DNA of 64,000 bases, taken from IMG/VR virus record IMGVR_UViG_2651869695_000003; one strand, 5' to 3'. Below are positions 22,235 through 52,044 of this stretch, one piece after another. Under the pieces are notes generated by a model. It did not search any database, was not told the DNA's origin, and saw only the letters and a program-made list of their open reading frames with translations. Source of the DNA: a virus. Taxonomy: Duplodnaviria; Heunggongvirae; Uroviricota; Caudoviricetes. The stretch's first letter is position 1; each line of letters opens with the position of its first letter. Position numbers and translations under genes: made by a program.

Positions 22235-23218
22235 ATGCATCGTATAGACACGAAAACCGCGCAGAAGGATAAGTTCGGCGCGGGTAAGAACGGTTTTACC
22301 CGTGGTAACCCCCAGACCGGCACACCTGCCACCGATCTTGATGATGACTACTTTGATATGTTGCAGGAAGAACTCTGCAGCGTGGTGGAGGCATCCGGTG
22401 CCAGCCTGGAGAAGGGGCGGCATGACCAGCTGCTTACCGCGCTTCGTGCGCTGCTGTTAAGCCGCAAGAATCCGTTTAGCGATATCAAATCGGATGGCAC
22501 GGTGAAAACGGCTCTCGAAAACCTTGGTTTGGGAGAAGCCAGATTCTCTGGTCGTTTGTTAAACACGAATATTTTTAAAAGCTCTGGAAAATATATCCCA
22601 ACACTAGGGACAAAAAAGATAAGGGTCATTGCCTCTGGTGGCGGTGGCGGCGGCGGTGGGGTTCCTGAAACAACAGAAAATCAGCAGGCAACAGCCGGAG
22701 CTGGATTGAGCGGTGCATTTATTGAAGCATTTTTCGAGGTTGATAATGATTTCGAAGTCAACGTTATTATCGGTGCTGCAGGTAAAGGGGGGGGAGCCGG
22801 AAGAAATTCAGGTAGTGAAGGTGGCACAACTTATTTCGGTTCCCTGATAACTGCACCGGGTGGTACAGGCGGTGGCGCGGGGGGAGCATCTGCAAACACA
22901 TCATATATTCAGGGTATTTCATGGGGTGCCAGTCCGACATCGTCCGGTACTGTACTAAGAGCATTTCGCTGTAGTGCAAAAACACCAGGAGCAATGGTTA
23001 TCTCTGTTAAAGCTGTTGCAGGTGGTACCGGGGGGGATACACCACTAGGTTCAGGCGGTATAGGTGGTGCAAGTTCTTCATCATTCAGCGGACGTGGTGG
23101 TGGTAAAGCTGAGGGCTTTGGTGCTGGCGGAGGCGGAGCCTGCGCACCTGCCGGAAGTGAGGCTCAATCGGGAGGTGACGGTGCCCCGGGAATAGTTATT
23201 GTTGAGGAGTATGCCTGA
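22235..23218 (+). CDS. Tail fibre protein, variant A (constant N-terminus 102 aa + Gly-rich variable C-terminus)
   Basis: First 102 aa identical to the fibre at 23869..24531; C-terminus rich in GGxGG repeats. Confidence 0.8.
22512..22537. other. Candidate Din-family invertase crossover site (left)
   Basis: CTCTCGAAAACC-TT-GGTTTGGGAGAA fits the hix/gix/cix-type pattern (TTnTCnnAAACC-NN-GGTTTnnGAnAA, from memory); lies at the constant/variable junction. Confidence 0.55.
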
Positions 23219-23481
23219 TGAGTAATTTTGCTCTGATTGAACATGGCGTGGTGAAAAATATTATTATCTGGGATGGAGAGGGTGATTTATTCTCTAACTG
23301 CGAAATTATAAATATTGATCATATAGATGCAGGCGTCGGTTGGTTCTATTCTGACGGAGAGTTTATAGCACCACCGGAACCGGAAATGACTGAATATGAT
23401 GTTGGTAATATCGACGCGGTGATGGAATCAGATACCAGCACCGCGCCGGACGTCATCTGGCCTGAACTGCCGGAGGCGTAG
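23218..23481 (+). CDS. Tail fibre assembly protein for variant A
   Basis: 87 aa; start overlaps fibre A stop (TGATG); C-terminus ...[12 protein letters not shown] resembles Tfa C-termini. Confidence 0.55.
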   Translation: MSNFALIEHGVVKNIIIWDGEGDLFSNCEIINIDHIDAGVGWFYSDGEFIAPPEPEMTEYDVGNIDAVMESDTSTAPDVIWPELPEA

Positions 23482-23872
23482 GCCATTCAATATCTGGCGC
23501 ACCGGAAGTATCGACCAGTTCCAGTGCGTCCAGGTAATCCAGCCACAAATTATATTGCGCCAGTTCCTCACCTTTCAGACGACCAATAGCGGCTTTACCA
23601 GGCCATTGCTTACTGTTCATGTATTCGTTGGCCTGTTCAATAAGTATACTTTTCATTCCCTCCGCTTCAGCTATTTCCTGTTCCTGTGTCTTCGCTGGAT
23701 ATTCAGTAAGTACAGGGTAGTTATCCGGATTATTGATAATAATTTTCCCCGTACTCTGACCATTCATAAGTTCATAATAAAGAGCATCTTCAATATCGAA
23801 AGCATCATCGGGAATATCGCTGTTATTTTCAGAGAAAAATCCCTGAACAGATGGGGACCATTTCATTTTCAT
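23453..23872 (-). CDS. Tail fibre assembly protein for variant B
   Basis: 139 aa; coupled to fibre B; C-terminus ...[15 protein letters not shown]; 3' end overlaps convergent tfa A by 29 nt. Confidence 0.7.
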
Positions 23873-24531
23873 AATTTCCCAATTCCTAAAATGTGGACAT
23901 CATCAGCCTTACGGGCATTCCAGGTGACAATTACATCGGTAGAGTGACGATTAACTGAGATTGCATATGCTTCGTTAGTCGAGCCAGAAACTTTTGTAGC
24001 AAACACAGCAAACAGGACACCAAATGACTGGGGCCATTTATAGCCTGACAGCTGATAATTACCATTATTCAGTGTTACAGCTTTGGCTGCTGCACTTGAT
24101 GGAATCGTCAGCCACTGAAGTATCAACCCTCCTGGCAAAAGTTGTTTTCCGTAATAATCCCTCACCCCACTAAATGAAGCCATGTCCGGTATCTGATTTT
24201 CCCCTGTTCCCACATTTCGTTTTGCCGCTTCTCCCAAACCAAGGTTTTCGAGAGCCGTTTTCACCGTGCCATCCGATTTGATATCGCTAAACGGATTCTT
24301 GCGGCTTAACAGCAGCGCACGAAGCGCGGTAAGCAGCTGGTCATGCCGCCCCTTCTCCAGGCTGGCACCGGATGCCTCCACCACGCTGCAGAGTTCTTCC
24401 TGCAACATATCAAAGTAGTCATCATCAAGATCGGTGGCAGGTGTGCCGGTCTGGGGGTTACCACGGGTAAAACCGTTCTTACCCGCGCCGAACTTATCCT
24501 TCTGCGCGGTTTTCGTGTCTATACGATGCAT
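23869..24531 (-). CDS. Tail fibre protein, variant B (same constant N-terminus, different C-terminal receptor-binding region)
   Basis: N-terminal 102 aa identical to variant A, then unrelated C-terminus. Confidence 0.8.
24229..24254. other. Candidate Din-family invertase crossover site (right, inverted)
   Basis: TTCTCCCAAACC-AA-GGTTTTCGAGAG, reverse complement of left site. Confidence 0.55.
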
Positions 24532-45791: not shown

Positions 45792-46160
45792 CTAAGCGTC
45801 CATTTCAAGGTTAAAATCCAACATTGAAAGGCAACCATCAATAAATCCTTCGGCTAGTTGTATTTCTATGCGTACCAATTTTTCATCCTTTCCACGCACC
45901 TTTGCAATCTTACGCTTGGATATTCTGTATAAATAATGTGCCACAAGCAGCGAGTGCTCATCTGGCTTTTTTTGCTTTAGACGAGCAAGACAACCTTCAA
46001 TAATTAATGCATCACTATCTGAACAAGCCTGACGTGTTTTGCTTGTGTAGGGAAGAAGCCCCTTAAACCCAGCAGCTATAGGCGAATAGTCTACTCCAGA
46101 ACTATCACTCGCCGCCCATGCTCCCCAACGCTCCAGAACCATCTGAATATCACGCATCAA
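45792..46160 (-). CDS. Antitermination protein Q (copy 2)
   Basis: Identical inverted copy of 606..974. Confidence 0.7.
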   Translation of the reverse strand: MMRDIQMVLERWGAWAASDSSGVDYSPIAAGFKGLLPYTSKTRQACSDSDALIIEGCLARLKQKKPDEHSLLVAHYLYRISKRKIAKVRGKDEKLVRIEIQLAEGFIDGCLSMLDFNLEMDA

Positions 46161-46174
46161 CTTTCTCCACCAAA

Positions 46175-47170
46175 TCAGGCCAACACCCCAATCGCCAGCG
46201 CGCGATCGATAAAACGAAATATCAGCTCCAGTTGGGAGCCATACTTCTCTTCAAATGCCACGGTATCCGCATGCAGCTCGTCGTGATGCTTTCTGCACAA
46301 AGGCAACACAAAGAGGTCATGCGCTTTTGTACCCATTCCACCCTGACCGTGACCTATCAGGTGGTGGGGATCATCAGCAGGCTTTCCACAACATGCACAC
46401 GGCTGTGTCTTAACCCAGCGCGTGTACTTTTCATTAACCCAGCGGCGGCGTTTTGGGCGTAACATAAAAGACTCCAGCGACTCCGGATCCACTTTCAGCG
46501 CCAGCACCTTTTTCGCTTTATCCTGGATAATGCTGGTGGCAGGAACCGAAGGCACAAGGTCACTTTCCCGGGTGACCGCCTGCACAACAGGCTTCGGTAA
46601 TCTCAGTGCCTTACGGGCTGCACTTTCCGGTAAGGCATCCGCCAGGTCATTACGAATCAGCCACCAGCACAGTTCCGGTATTGTCACAACGTGACTATCA
46701 TCAAAACCGAGATCCCGACGCACAACAGACAACACCCAGCGGGCACAGTTATCCGTTGCCATTGATTCCAGCCGTTCCGTGAACTGATCGCGCAGCTGGT
46801 TATCGCAGTGCCAGCACAAACGGATTGCGCCCGGAGCGTGTCGCATTGTTGTCATGTTCTCGCTGTGCCAGTCGGAATGAGGCCACTGGCAGCCTTTTTC
46901 ACGAAGTAACCAGCTTTCAAGACATTCCACGCCACCAGCACGACGGATCACTGCCTCATTGCGGAATACGGCCCGAACGGCAGGATCATCCGCCAGCGGT
47001 TGTGATGCCGCCGGAACGGCACCACTGGCGAAAGATGAATAACGTTCCGGCTCAGGCTCCAGCAGGACACGCCCCTGCATAAACAGGGGCATCAACTCTG
47101 AACCTGGCCTGAACAATACGATCCCCATACGCGGGGCAATTTCAGGGGTCAGTAGTGCTCTCACGGTCAC
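46175..47170 (-). CDS. DUF968/YdfU-like prophage protein, full length (331 aa)
   Basis: C-terminal 196 aa duplicated at 1..591; Cys/His-rich C-terminus. Confidence 0.5.
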   Translation of the reverse strand: MTVRALLTPEIAPRMGIVLFRPGSELMPLFMQGRVLLEPEPERYSSFASGAVPAASQPLADDPAVRAVFRNEAVIRRAGGVECLESWLLREKGCQWPHSDWHSENMTTMRHAPGAIRLCWHCDNQLRDQFTERLESMATDNCARWVLSVVRRDLGFDDSHVVTIPELCWWLIRNDLADALPESAARKALRLPKPVVQAVTRESDLVPSVPATSIIQDKAKKVLALKVDPESLESFMLRPKRRRWVNEKYTRWVKTQPCACCGKPADDPHHLIGHGQGGMGTKAHDLFVLPLCRKHHDELHADTVAFEEKYGSQLELIFRFIDRALAIGVLA

Positions 47171-47171
47171 C

Positions 47172-47969
47172 TCAATGAACGGTATCGAGCAGCTTTAACA
47201 GCTCAGAGAATCGGGATTCGAAGAAATGCGGCTGCGTCTCGCGCGGATTTGCGGGACTGGTGATGTTCTTGCCGAACATGCAGCCTTTCGCTGTCAGCGA
47301 CCAGAATTTTTTGATGTTGTTAATCGCGGTACGGCTGTATCGTTCGCGCTGCTCGACGATCCCCAGCTTCACCATCTGGTGATATGCCTGATTAGCCGTC
47401 AGGCGGATACCATACTGTTTCAGCAGTGCACTCAGTGACAGCGTAGGGCGACTTGAGCCATCGTGTGCATCAGCAGGAGCATCAATGGCATAGCGCGGTG
47501 CCAGATTCGGTAAGCCAACAGCCTCCTGAAGTTTCTGACAGGCTCCAAGCACTGAAGAGTTAGACAGATTTAACTCCCGGCGCATAAAGTCCAGCAGAAT
47601 CACGCCAGCCTGCATCTTGTCAGCAGCCTGTCCGGATAATTTTTCAGGTGCGCTGGTTACCATGTCGAAAGTACGGATCACCTTCAGATGGAATGACGGG
47701 CTGATCCACATTGCATAGGCATACACCAGTTCTTTGCAGACATACGTCCCCTGGTTATTTCCGCCACGAATAACGTTAACTGGCGCTATATTGACCGAGT
47801 TGCAAATCTGCAACTCGCTTATTAAACGTTCGGTTTGCTCATTGCGGAGCCAGAATGCAGGCTTATGTTTATCCAGAGAACCGGCAGCCCTGTGCAAATC
47901 GTTCAGGCTGTAACGCCCATAAGCATCACGACGAACTTCAATACCATCAATAACCATCAGATTATTCAT
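47172..47969 (-). CDS. KilA-N domain protein (antirepressor-like)
   Basis: N-terminal region (MNNLMVIDGIEVRRDAYGRYSLNDLHRAAG...) resembles KilA-N/Bro-N domains; nin-region position. Confidence 0.6.
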   Translation of the reverse strand: MNNLMVIDGIEVRRDAYGRYSLNDLHRAAGSLDKHKPAFWLRNEQTERLISELQICNSVNIAPVNVIRGGNNQGTYVCKELVYAYAMWISPSFHLKVIRTFDMVTSAPEKLSGQAADKMQAGVILLDFMRRELNLSNSSVLGACQKLQEAVGLPNLAPRYAIDAPADAHDGSSRPTLSLSALLKQYGIRLTANQAYHQMVKLGIVEQRERYSRTAINNIKKFWSLTAKGCMFGKNITSPANPRETQPHFFESRFSELLKLLDTVH

Positions 47970-47988
47970 ACTTCGTTTCTCCTCTTAA

Positions 47989-48378
47989 TCAGGCGGCTGC
48001 ACCCGCCGGTTTCTCGTACTTACTGATAGTGATCTCGACCTTCCCTTCCGGGATAACCGGTCCCCACTCCACCAGCATTCTTTTCACCTGACTGTCGTCT
48101 TCCCACACACCCGCGTGGGTCAGGGCGTCAAACAGCGCCTTGTTATAGTTGTCCAGATCGCGGATCCGGTTATCCGGAGGAAACAACACGATCTCCACTG
48201 AAGCAGGTGCCGACGTTGGTTTTGGCAGACGACGTAACTGCTCAAATATTGCTGCACACGCCGCGCTCTGGAATTTGCGCCCCGCCGCGCTTATCAGGCT
48301 CTTACCAGCAAACGCCCCTTTGTTGGGGTGTCGCCAGTACGTGTTCACGCTGGGCGGAAAAGGCAGGATCAGCTTCAT
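47989..48378 (-). CDS. rusA: Holliday junction resolvase RusA
   Basis: PFPPSVNTYWR ... RDLDNYNKALFDALTHAGVWEDDSQV matches conserved RusA motifs. Confidence 0.8.
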   Translation of the reverse strand: MKLILPFPPSVNTYWRHPNKGAFAGKSLISAAGRKFQSAACAAIFEQLRRLPKPTSAPASVEIVLFPPDNRIRDLDNYNKALFDALTHAGVWEDDSQVKRMLVEWGPVIPEGKVEITISKYEKPAGAAA

Positions 48379-48701
48379 ACTTTCAGGCCCCTCTCATGTA
48401 ACCAGTGGGCTGCACGCAGCCTGGCGTTTTCCTCACCGGCAAGCAGTGAGCGGATAATCCCGACCGCCTCGCTGTCGTCGTCCTTCACCGCGGTATGAAG
48501 CGTTATCCCCCGTGCCACGCCACGCTTTATCGTGATGACGCCTTTTTTCTCCAGTGCGCGAAGATGCTCCACCGCTGCATTCACTGAACGGTATCCCAGC
48601 ATGGTAGCCACCTCCTGATTGGTTGGTGGGAAGCCACGTTCTTTCTGGTAAGAAATCAGCATATCCAGCACCTGCTGCTGGCATTGAGTTAACGTCGTCA
48701 T
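48375..48701 (-). CDS. LexA-like N-terminal DNA-binding domain protein (no peptidase domain)
   Basis: LTQCQQQVLDMLISYQKERGFPPTNQEVATMLGYRSVNAAVEHLRALEKKGVI resembles LexA winged-helix domain; start taken at internal Met coupled to upstream stop (TAATG). Confidence 0.55.
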   Translation of the reverse strand: MTTLTQCQQQVLDMLISYQKERGFPPTNQEVATMLGYRSVNAAVEHLRALEKKGVITIKRGVARGITLHTAVKDDDSEAVGIIRSLLAGEENARLRAAHWLHERGLKV

Positions 48702-49195
48702 TAAGCCCCCACGTAATTCCCTGACAGATACCACTCTTCACCTGATGCAGCCCGCTTACTGCTTTTCCGTAAACACCGTTCACGACGCGCCAGAAAATTG
48801 TTTCGTTCTGGCTGGGAGTGGCTTTCACGGAATGCCGCCATCCACACCGTTGCAGCACGACGGTATAAGCCCCTGGACTCCAGTTCTTCCGCCTGGCGGG
48901 TCAGGCACAAAATCACCCGCGGGTCGTTAGTGCCGACATAGAAATTGCGCACAGGTCTGGTTTCACGAACTGGTTGTGGTTCCGGATCCTGCGCTCTCTC
49001 AGTCAGGCGCGGGAAATGTCTGTGTGTATCTCCTTCACAACGGTGAGCCACACGCCCACTCTGACGTAACTTGCTTGCTGACTGCAGAACGCGCTGCCGT
49101 GAGTAACCTGCAAAAGCATCCGCAATGTCTCCGGAAGTACAGCCCGGATGGGCTTCAATGAATTTCTGAACGTCATTCAAAAGACTCATGCTCAC
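48701..49195 (-). CDS. Hypothetical early-region protein (164 aa)
   Basis: ORF translationally coupled to flanking genes; function not recognised. Confidence 0.4.
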   Translation of the reverse strand: MSMSLLNDVQKFIEAHPGCTSGDIADAFAGYSRQRVLQSASKLRQSGRVAHRCEGDTHRHFPRLTERAQDPEPQPVRETRPVRNFYVGTNDPRVILCLTRQAEELESRGLYRRAATVWMAAFRESHSQPERNNFLARRERCLRKSSKRAASGEEWYLSGNYVGA

Positions 49196-50133
49196 CCCCT
49201 GAATCCTGCCGGGATCTGGCTGTAGTCCACATTGTCGTAACTGGCTTTGAAGTACGGGTCTTCGCGTTTTTCTGTGTACGTGCTGACGGACGGCGATAAG
49301 CGCAGGGAAAGCTCATCCCATTTTTCCCGCAGCTTCGACGGGCTGAGCACGTTACGGCACCAGAACGGATCGCGGCTGACGCGGCTGTACATCTCGCAGA
49401 TTTGTTTGTGAGTACGACCATCCTGCACACACATCAGGCGAATTTCGTTTGCCCAGGCTGTCCAGTTCGGTTCTTTGGGACGAACCACCTCGCCGTCACA
49501 TTCGGCAGCCTGCTCGTACAGGGCGATGATTTTTTTCCAGAGCCACTGTGCGCAGGTCAAATCATCCTGCGTCCCCCACTGGCGCTTTTTAGGGCTGAAT
49601 ACAACCGCATCAGGATGGCGAGTTAAAAAATCCTGTTCAGCCGTCTGCGTGTCCGGTTGCGAAGCGTCCGGACGAGAAGGTTTTTTATCTGACGGATCAT
49701 GTTTTGATTTTACTGACGGATCCCCGCCAGATTCTGACGGGTGAAAACCCGCTTTTTTGCCAGATTTCGACGCATCAAATTTTGACGGGTCAGATTTTGA
49801 TGCGTCAGATTTTGACGGGTCAGAATCTGACAGTTGAGAAAATGCCGCTGCCTGAAGCTTCGCAACGTTAAGCTGATAAACATTCGACGCATTGCGGTTA
49901 CCCTGGCGACGCGCCTTACGCGTTAACCAGCCTTCTGCTTCCAGCCGTGCGATAGCCGTTCTGACGGTACTCATCCCCGCGCCAATCTGACGGGCAATGG
50001 TTTCAATTGATGGCCAGCACACACCTTCGTCATTACTGAAATCAGCCAGGCGGGCCATAATTGCCACGCTGGATAACTTCATGCCTGATGCAGCGCAACC
50101 ATCCCATACATAGCCGGTTAATTTAGTGCTCAT
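49192..50133 (-). CDS. Replication initiation protein (O-like; HTH N-terminus, internal pentapeptide repeats)
   Basis: N-terminal winged-helix-like region; internal tandem 15-bp DNA repeats; position downstream of cro/cII-like genes. Confidence 0.55.
   Translation of the reverse strand: MSTKLTGYVWDGCAASGMKLSSVAIMARLADFSNDEGVCWPSIETIARQIGAGMSTVRTAIARLEAEGWLTRKARRQGNRNASNVYQLNVAKLQAAAFSQLSDSDPSKSDASKSDPSKFDASKSGKKAGFHPSESGGDPSVKSKHDPSDKKPSRPDASQPDTQTAEQDFLTRHPDAVVFSPKKRQWGTQDDLTCAQWLWKKIIALYEQAAECDGEVVRPKEPNWTAWANEIRLMCVQDGRTHKQICEMYSRVSRDPFWCRNVLSPSKLREKWDELSLRLSPSVSTYTEKREDPYFKASYDNVDYSQIPAGFRG
49728..49835. repeat. Iteron-like tandem 15-bp direct repeats inside replication gene (candidate ori)
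   Basis: CAGATTTTGAYGSGT units at 49728, 49761, 49776, 49791, 49806, 49821 read directly. Confidence 0.5.
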
Positions 50134-51369: not shown

Positions 51370-52044
51370 ATGAAAACAATCCATGACATCCGGCGGTCTA
51401 ACGCCAGAAAACTGAGAGATGGTGTTGGCGGGAATTCTTCCTTTGCCACTATGATTGATCGCGAGCCAACCCAGACCAGCAGGTTTATGGGAGATGGTGC
51501 TACTAAAAATATCGGTGACAGCATGGCACGACACATCGAAAAATGTTTCGACCTGCCTGTCGGATGGCTCGATCAAGAACACCAGACAACGAACATCACA
51601 AAAAAACCTGATGTTTCAATCACTAATAAACAAATCACATTAGTCCCTGTCATATCATGGGTACAGGCCGGAGCATGGAAAGAAGTTGGATATTCTGAGG
51701 TTGATTTGAGCACAGCAGAAACGTATCCCTGCCCTGTACCCTGTGGGGAAATGACTTATATCTTGCGGGTGATAGGTGATTCAATGATTGATGAGTACCG
51801 CCCGGGAGACATGATTTTTGTCGATCCTGAAGTACCTGCCTGCCACGGTGACGACGTTATTGCATTGATGCACGATACAGGTGAAACCACCTTCAAAAGG
51901 TTGATAGAAGATGGGACACAGCGTTATCTCAAAGCGTTAAACCCAAACTGGCCTGAGCCTTACATTAAGATCAACGGTAATTGCTCTATAATTGGTACAG
52001 TGATTTTCTCAGGAAAACCAAGAAGATACAAAATCAAAGCCTAA
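51370..52044 (+). CDS. CI-like repressor (HTH + S24 LexA-type peptidase domain)
   Basis: C-terminal ...VIGDSMIDEYRPGDMIFVDP... autocleavage domain motif; divergent from cro; no SD (possibly leaderless like lambda PRM transcript). Confidence 0.8.
   Translation: MKTIHDIRRSNARKLRDGVGGNSSFATMIDREPTQTSRFMGDGATKNIGDSMARHIEKCFDLPVGWLDQEHQTTNITKKPDVSITNKQITLVPVISWVQAGAWKEVGYSEVDLSTAETYPCPVPCGEMTYILRVIGDSMIDEYRPGDMIFVDPEVPACHGDDVIALMHDTGETTFKRLIEDGTQRYLKALNPNWPEPYIKINGNCSIIGTVIFSGKPRRYKIKA

Follow-up and report, generated by a model that had tools for sequence, protein, structure and literature searches.

A probable replication origin in the linker-coding part of the initiator gene of an SfII/SfIV-type lambdoid prophage

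Why does the gene for a phage replication initiator carry a tandem array of short, nearly identical repeats in the middle of its coding sequence, and is that array kept for the peptide that it encodes or for the DNA itself? We address this question for a 313-residue initiator encoded by a lambdoid prophage, within a stretch of 64,000 nucleotides that was analysed as a whole and is referred to here as the window; coordinates are those of the window, and positions preceded by a plus sign are those of the gene. As far as can be judged from sequence, positions 49675-49835, in the part of the gene that encodes the interdomain linker, probably constitute the replication origin of this SfII/SfIV-type prophage, and the repeats are very probably binding sites for the initiator at that origin. 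The features on which the argument turns are collected in Table 1.

Table 1. Features of the initiator gene and of the proposed origin within it
Feature	Position	Strand	Description or sequence	Basis
Replication initiator gene, 313 aa	49192..50133	-	HTH_36 N-terminal domain and lambda-O-type C-terminal domain	
N-terminal winged-helix DNA-binding domain (aa 1-98)	49840..50133	-	Presumed iteron reader	AlphaFold2
C-terminal domain (aa 162-313)	49192..49650	-	Homologous to lambda O C-terminal domain	BLASTP
Five contiguous 15-bp iterons	49761-49835		Inside O-like initiator gene 49192..50133(-)	Sequence read, Tandem Repeats Finder, repeat search
Cores of the five iterons	49830-49820, 49815-49805, 49800-49790, 49785-49775, 49770-49760	coding strand		
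18-bp spacer	49743..49760		A6 tract; T4 tract continues into sixth unit; coding strand GGCAAAAAAGCGGGTTTTCACCC (49760-49738)	
Sixth iteron	49727..49742 (15-bp unit 49728-49742)		CAGATTCTGACGGGT; 18 bp from the five-unit block	
Two 24-bp GATC-headed AT-rich repeats	49675..49722		Coding strand GATCCGTCAGTAAAATCAAAACAT / GATCCGTCAGATAAAAAACCTTCT; candidate DNA-unwinding element	

An earlier, sequence-only reading of the locus had described five contiguous 15-bp units and a sixth copy beyond an 18-bp spacer, and the letters agree with it to the base (plus strand of the five units: CAGATTTCGACGCAT / CAAATTTTGACGGGT / CAGATTTTGATGCGT / CAGATTTTGACGGGT / CAGAATCTGACAGTT). Its remark that the coding strand specifies repeating SKSD(A/P) pentapeptides was equally accurate, since the array is translated within the 313-residue frame as SDSDPSKSDASKSDPSKFDASKSG and residues 100-124 read LSDSDPSKSDASKSDPSKFDASKSG. 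What is conserved in each unit is an 11-bp core, TCARAWTCTGA on the coding strand, with the internal dyad CAGAWTCTG, the other 4 bp being a variable spacer. Iteron 6, the most conserved copy across the family, has as its core an 11-bp near-perfect palindrome (TCAGAATCTGG). Tandem Repeats Finder assigns a period of 15 to 49761-49824 (4.3 copies, score 86), along with a period-30 super-repeat of the same segment (2.1 copies, score 100), and a repeat search recovers a six-member family with spacings of 33, 15, 15, 15 and 15. The array is the sole multi-copy tandem array of the 64-kb window. With up to one mismatch allowed, TCARAWTCTGR matches the window 25 times, as against 8.0 +/- 2.8 times in shuffled sequences, none of 100 of which reached 25; six distinct sites are packed within 49727-49830, and no second cluster was found elsewhere in the window.

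The name O-like, which the gene had been given on first reading, fits one half of its product. PHROGs places the initiator over its full length in phrog_391, 'replication initiation O-like' (E 8e-136), and BLASTP aligns it with lambda O over residues 70-277 (E 7e-26), most strongly over 183-277, in keeping with a C-terminal domain homologous to that of lambda O. The N-terminal domain, however, is Pfam HTH_36 (42.9 bits vs a cut-off of 25) and not the Phage_rep_O domain of lambda O: a search with Phage_rep_O (PF04492) gave no match for the window initiator, whereas lambda O itself scores 123 bits. Nor was there a match to the Rep_3 family, and RP-C appeared only below threshold (17.2 bits vs 24.4). 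An AlphaFold2 model built from 32 homologues predicts that residues 1-98 form a winged-helix domain with four helices and a beta-hairpin wing at 70-74 and 84-88, that residues 102-161 (pLDDT <50) are disordered, and that residues 162-280 form a helical C-terminal domain, modelled with confidence; the iterons and the GATC elements listed in Table 1 fall wholly within the low-confidence linker. When the model was compared with the PDB by Foldseek, only generic MarR/wHTH folds were returned (E >1e-3), and a sequence search of the PDB with the initiator likewise returned only generic folds, both searches being uninformative for the C-terminal domain. At the DNA level, the gene is 99-100% identical to its counterpart in phages Kati, SfII and SfIV.

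Deciding whether such repeats are maintained as peptide or as DNA requires a comparison of their synonymous positions with those of neighbouring sequence in the same genes. Our sample comprised 80 loci, one genome per species across Enterobacterales, plus seven phage homologues, and the codon test was run on 81 distinct genes (74 genome loci, six phage homologues and the window) that contain 397 repeats. Repeats were defined by peptide only, as [SP][KEDN][SF][DEGV] in residues 90-175, which avoids circularity. At position 1 of the repeats, Ser is encoded by TCA in 318 of 339 cases (94%, vs 16% in the background of the same genes) and Pro by CCA in 53 of 58 (91% vs 28%). The remaining positions behave in the same way: Lys is AAA without exception (195/195, 100% vs 62%), Glu is GAA in 128/131 (98% vs 57%), and Ser at position 3 is TCT in 315/354 (89% vs 9%), each again set against the background of the same genes. 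Shared ancestry was controlled for with invariant amino-acid columns of the adjacent N-terminal domain, also in the same genes. In these columns the most frequent codon reaches a mean of only 0.50 where the residue has at least four codons and 0.61 where it has two, showing that the synonymous sites of the N-terminal domain have been largely randomised.

The pattern extends from codon counts to the shape of the unit and to the sequence beyond it. The logo of the 15-bp unit, nnnTCARAWTCTGAn, holds 1.2-1.6 bits at the third codon positions of the core, compared with 0.3-0.7 bits at all three positions of the spacer codon, and the amino acids of the repeats vary (SKSD, SDSD, SESG, PESG, SKFE and others) while the nucleotides stay preserved. 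Among 88 loci of ~4.3 kb, 335 of the 347 coding-strand matches to YCRRAWTYTGR lie at +300..+499 of the gene. When the alignment was anchored on the most conserved peptide, a block of ~60 bp, GTTTTnACCCnyCAGAATCTGGnGGGGATCCGTCAGTAAAtTCAAAa..GATCCA, proved to be conserved in 74 genes whatever the codon position. In phiP27 (L007) and in a Citrobacter relative (L079), a compensated -1/+1 frameshift changes the peptide around site 6, which reads VLTLQNLDP in phiP27 instead of GFHPSESGG and is different again in the Citrobacter gene. Despite the frameshift, 19-21 of the 21 nucleotides at site 6 are identical to the window in these two genes, while the DNA of their N-terminal domains is 63% identical to the window overall and 39% identical at third positions. 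Out-of-frame copies of the motif number two among 344, both in one lineage, and we regard them as a supportive argument and not as a broad one, the weight being carried by the codon-usage test. Taken together, codon fixation, the scrambled control, the unit logo, the ~60-bp block and survival of the frameshift indicate that the repeats are conserved as DNA, not as protein, and that they form a cis-acting element laid over a tolerant linker.

If the repeats are sites for a protein, their distribution across recombinant initiator genes bears on which one. The same N-terminal domain and motif are joined to C-termini of several kinds, lambda-O-like in seven genes, Phg_2220_C-like in 58, phiP27-like in two and other in 14. 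By megablast, phiNP has gene positions 1-478 in common with the window, and mEp460_4F5 has positions 442-942, breakpoints which suggest that the origin block travels with the DNA-binding domain. In mEp460_4F5 the C-terminal half, 96.6% identical to the window in DNA, is joined to a different N-terminal domain, and at +315..+440 the gene has an unrelated repeat of 23-24 bp, present in 5.4 copies; the O-like gene of Min27 has 22-24-bp repeats at +292..+355. A variant from E. coli (P0036/L093), whose recognition helix has diverged and whose C-terminus is unchanged, carries 15-bp units of TCAAnnnTTGAC, followed by the same GATC block. These comparisons indicate that the repeat sequence is specific to the DNA-binding domain of the initiator and independent of its C-terminal domain, other DNA-binding domains being accompanied by other repeats at an equivalent point of the gene. 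In the L008/L084 lineage, residues of the putative recognition helix have changed and the core motif has not, and we therefore claim only a coarse co-variation of helix and iteron. The number of repeats, for which a comparison across related prophages had been suggested, does vary among close relatives, and it does so by whole 15-bp units, or steps of five amino acids; initiators of 303, 313, 318, 323 and 337 residues occur among them, as do deleted forms of 274-287 residues.

On the far side of the sixth iteron lies a second repeated element. Two matches to CTGACGGATC, at 49689-49698 and 49713-49722, had been taken for partial iteron copies; they are present, but are better described as belonging to a separate pair of 24-bp repeats that begin with GATC. 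GATCCRTCAG occurs in the window at these two places only (0.19 expected). Two GATCC copies are found in 67 of 82 genes of the family, successive copies are spaced by 24 bp in 71 of 75 pairs, and the density of GATC in the repeat-bearing 100-nt bin of family genes is ~6 times that of the flanks. Like the GTTTT-N-ACCC part of the spacer, the GATC repeats are conserved at all three codon positions. The 40 nt of lowest GC content in the initiator gene, 49680-49719 (GC 0.35), adjoin the array, and the AT-rich stretch near the iterons is short and moderate (65% AT over 40 nt). We consider the GATC-headed repeats a candidate unwinding element. Searches found no DnaA boxes near the initiator gene and no promoter-like site inside it, and the terminator-like hairpin that the antisense strand could form at 49738-49751 was set aside as weak and not conserved in homologues.

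Placement of an origin within the initiator gene is a textbook arrangement, long known from lambda; it is the present set of iterons that is newly described. Lambda has four iterons in O with an AT-rich region after them (PMC7466680), and, as a general rule, the initiator genes of lambda, P22 and L contain repeats particular to each phage (PMC8022706). Here as in lambda, the proposed origin is located between the parts of the gene that encode the DNA-binding and C-terminal domains, and direct repeats with internal dyad symmetry have an AT-rich stretch downstream of them. Read in the coding direction, the elements also come in the same order, the DNA-binding domain being followed by the iterons (+299..+406 here vs +349..+433 in lambda O), the AT-rich stretch (+412..+459 here) and the C-terminal domain. 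The initial suggestion that the iterons lie inside the initiator gene as they do in lambda O is supported, and all of its predictions that can be tested on sequence data gave positive results. The two loci differ in their repeats, of which there are six here with an 11-bp core and a 15-bp period and four in lambda of 18-19 bp with a period of 20-24 bp, in the composition of the AT-rich part, which here consists of the two GATC-headed 24-bp repeats, and in the P gene, which is lacking here. To the right of the AT-rich region of lambda (L089, ~1160-1190), CGTCAGAGAATTCTGGCGAATCC resembles the region of site 6 at 49722-49742 (CCGTCAGAATCTGGCGGGGATCC), the dyads being CAGAATTCTG in lambda and CAGAATCTG here, a resemblance that could be chance or an old relic.

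Other phages and plasmids provide further points of comparison. P22 and phage L encode distantly related, ori-binding initiators (gene 18), each with repeats of its own in the coding sequence. In gene 18 of phage L, where the origin was deduced from sequence only (PMC8022706), an 11-bp sequence recurs in six imprecise copies, which sets a precedent for short units. In contrast to the present locus, however, P22 and L have other repeat and initiator sequences, and their initiator is accompanied by a helicase gene of DnaB type (gene 12) that has no counterpart here. The origins of Stx phages 933W and P27 contain six lambda-type iterons, and iteron number varies among related phages; extra iterons lengthen the initiator linker, O binds as a dimer, and the iterons have been tested by synonymous mutation (PMC7466680). 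Variation in iteron number is thus common to these phages and to the relatives studied here, but the O proteins of 933W and P27 and their iterons (ATCCCTCAAAACGAGGGA) are truly of lambda type. The phage called 'P27' in that study might be taken for phiP27 (NC_003356), an identification that we rejected because the former has lambda-type iterons and the latter belongs to the present family. In iteron plasmids of the RepA/RepE/pi type, the initiator is a winged-helix protein and the direct repeats form an array beside an AT-rich element, and oriC and P1 oriR have AT-rich repeats that bear GATC sites. The locus described here shares with these replicons its winged-helix initiator, its direct repeats and its adjacent, GATC-bearing AT-rich element; it differs from them in having no Rep_3 match, no DnaA boxes nearby and an origin placed inside the gene, not beside it.

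What other forces could have shaped the array? It might be a low-complexity peptide linker, (SKSDx)n, generated by slippage and devoid of function as DNA. The region does encode a predicted disordered linker rich in Ser, Lys, Asp and Pro, its copy number changes in whole steps of five amino acids among close relatives, and 342 of the 344 motif copies share one reading frame. We nonetheless find this explanation highly improbable, because the synonymous positions of the core are nearly fixed while those of the neighbouring folded domain are scrambled in the same genes, the amino acids vary in ways that preserve nucleotides, the spacer codon varies freely at each of its positions, and one site outlives a frameshift that rewrites the peptide. 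Synonymous constraint could also reflect overlap with something else, be it an antisense or alternative-frame ORF, a structured RNA, or a hairpin in single-stranded DNA such as a primosome assembly site, and to this we give even less credence. Two ORFs of 55-60 aa overlap the array, 49704..49871(+) and 49710..49892(-), and a single strand of the array folds better than its shuffles (z = -4.6), but tandem dyads by nature keep frames open and fold well. Moreover, a pattern of 11 conserved and 4 free nucleotides, with variable copy number and indels of whole units, is ill suited to a second coding frame, and the gene has yielded no promoter-like site.

The alternative that we take most seriously, while still thinking it unlikely, accepts that the repeats are DNA binding sites and denies that they constitute the origin itself. 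On this view they could serve as operators in an autoregulated early operon, as targets of other phage or host proteins, or in copy control or incompatibility, with initiation taking place elsewhere. Constraint at the DNA level says neither which protein reads the sites nor what follows binding, no helicase loader gene is nearby, and the AT-rich element is modest. On the other hand, the position of the repeats, the order of elements and the linkage to a DNA-binding domain match those of proven lambdoid origins (PMC7466680; PMC8022706), the repeats change with the DNA-binding domain of the initiator and not with neighbouring regulators, and the motif forms no other cluster anywhere in the window. 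We favour the reading in which the initiator recognises the repeats as part of an origin within its own gene.

Under this proposal, the N-terminal winged-helix domain of the initiator would bind the six TCARAWTCTGA sites, probably with one dimer per site since each site has an internal dyad. Five sites phased at 15 bp, with the sixth 33 bp further on, would give rise to a nucleoprotein complex, and this complex, together with the A/T tracts of the spacer, may destabilise the adjacent AT-rich stretch of two 24-bp GATC-headed repeats, the presumed site of opening. The lambda-O-type C-terminal domain would then recruit the replicative helicase, by whatever route loading occurs. Because the array lies in a disordered linker that tolerates changes in length, the DNA can evolve as an array of binding sites while still being translated. 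The binding register is less certain, since, with a period of 15 bp, neighbouring sites point in nearly opposite directions around the helix, and only ~6 bp separate the two halves of the 11-bp dyad, two features that are unusual for a winged-helix dimer; dyads at the junctions between units, TCTGAC-N2/3-GTCAGA, offer an alternative register. A tblastn search of a plasmid collection revealed no natural mini-replicon, only prophages on large replicons and 15-kb excised circles (e14-like).

How the helicase might be loaded is best considered in the context of the neighbouring genes. The initiator sits in a lambdoid early-right operon, with a cI-like S24 repressor (51370..52044, +), a Cro-side gene, a CII-like gene and a DUF4222 gene on its upstream side, and PerC-like, LexA-DNA-binding-domain, RusA, KilA-N, DUF968 and Q-like genes after it. 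The gene next after the initiator (48701-49195) has a 4-nt overlap with the initiator stop. Its product, of 164 aa, is PerC-like in the C-terminal half and, in the N-terminal half, has matches solely among PHROG families of unknown function; the gene is kept beside lambda-O-type C-termini in several relatives. In lambda, the C-terminal domain of O binds P. The window contains no homologue of P, and no gene for a lambda P, DnaC-like or DnaB-like protein adjoins the initiator (45792-50133), a point against the helicase-loading step proposed above. Of 74 related loci, only 5 have a DnaC-like gene in the first 2 kb past the initiator, and 39 have an adenine-methyltransferase-like gene just downstream, within the same distance; SfII has dam in this location, and the window and SfIV do not. 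We speculate, with more doubt than conviction, that the origin may be loader-less and gated by methylation. The two near-invariant GATC repeats, which can be compared to the 13-mers of oriC or the heptamers of P1 oriR, would serve as an unwinding element controlled by Dam and SeqA, and the C-terminal domain would bring in the DnaB of the host, whether or not DnaC takes part and with no P-like protein. Such a mechanism would explain why an adenine methyltransferase gene lies downstream in about half of the modules and, if true, would place this 'initiator-solo' design among the commonest prophage replicons of E. coli.

The module is broadly distributed, as a 301-bp segment of it has matches in 2914 of the 5426 complete E. 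coli genomes. Within CPS-53/KpLE1, a cryptic prophage of K-12 (L095, E. coli BW25113, 2593-3300), the pseudogene yfdO is an N-terminally truncated copy of the initiator that has lost the DNA-binding domain and kept the iteron array at 99% identity, and its neighbour yfdN is PerC-like. Remnants that lack both iterons and C-terminal domain were also encountered: in E. coli ECDA1023 (L063) the first 79 aa of the initiator are fused to terminase-like sequence, and an e14-like 15-kb circle (L096, 6648-6989) retains only a 113-aa N-terminal remnant ORF. Our literature search found no published description of the present iteron set or origin, and a full-text search for the motif strings returned no phage paper. 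The SfIV genome paper names a replication module and no origin (PMC3851460), and papers on the replication units of non-lambdoid Stx phages make no mention of iterons or of the present module (PMC8044961).

The analysis thus supplies a probable origin and an iteron consensus for a very common replication module of enterobacterial prophages, including those of the serotype-converting Shigella phages SfII and SfIV, whose initiator is usually annotated merely as a 'helix-turn-helix domain-containing protein'. The array is also a clean natural case in which a DNA code overlies a protein code and can be read from codon statistics alone. It suggests a rule for origin annotation, namely a repeat array with fixed synonymous sites in the linker of an HTH_36 initiator, and possible uses include typing prophages by replicon, predicting whether co-resident prophages are incompatible in replication, and designing phage-derived vectors.

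The window has one further feature that concerns the state of the prophage as a whole. A perfect (100%) inverted repeat of 22,539 nt occupies 1-22539 and 24227-46765, its arms separated by 1,687 nt; the left one is truncated at the edge of the window, beyond which the duplication may extend, and the right one ends inside a DUF968-like ORF (46175..47170). Either a fold-back misassembly or a head-to-head duplication of the prophage late region could account for it, and the prophage, which sits beside the duplication, may accordingly be rearranged or misassembled. At the centre of the inverted repeat (22235-24531), two tail-fibre genes face each other, 22235..23218 (+) and 23869..24531 (-), with identical N-terminal segments of ~100 aa, different C-termini, and small tail-fibre-assembly-like ORFs between them. 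Their layout resembles an invertible tail-fibre segment, which could have seeded the fold-back.
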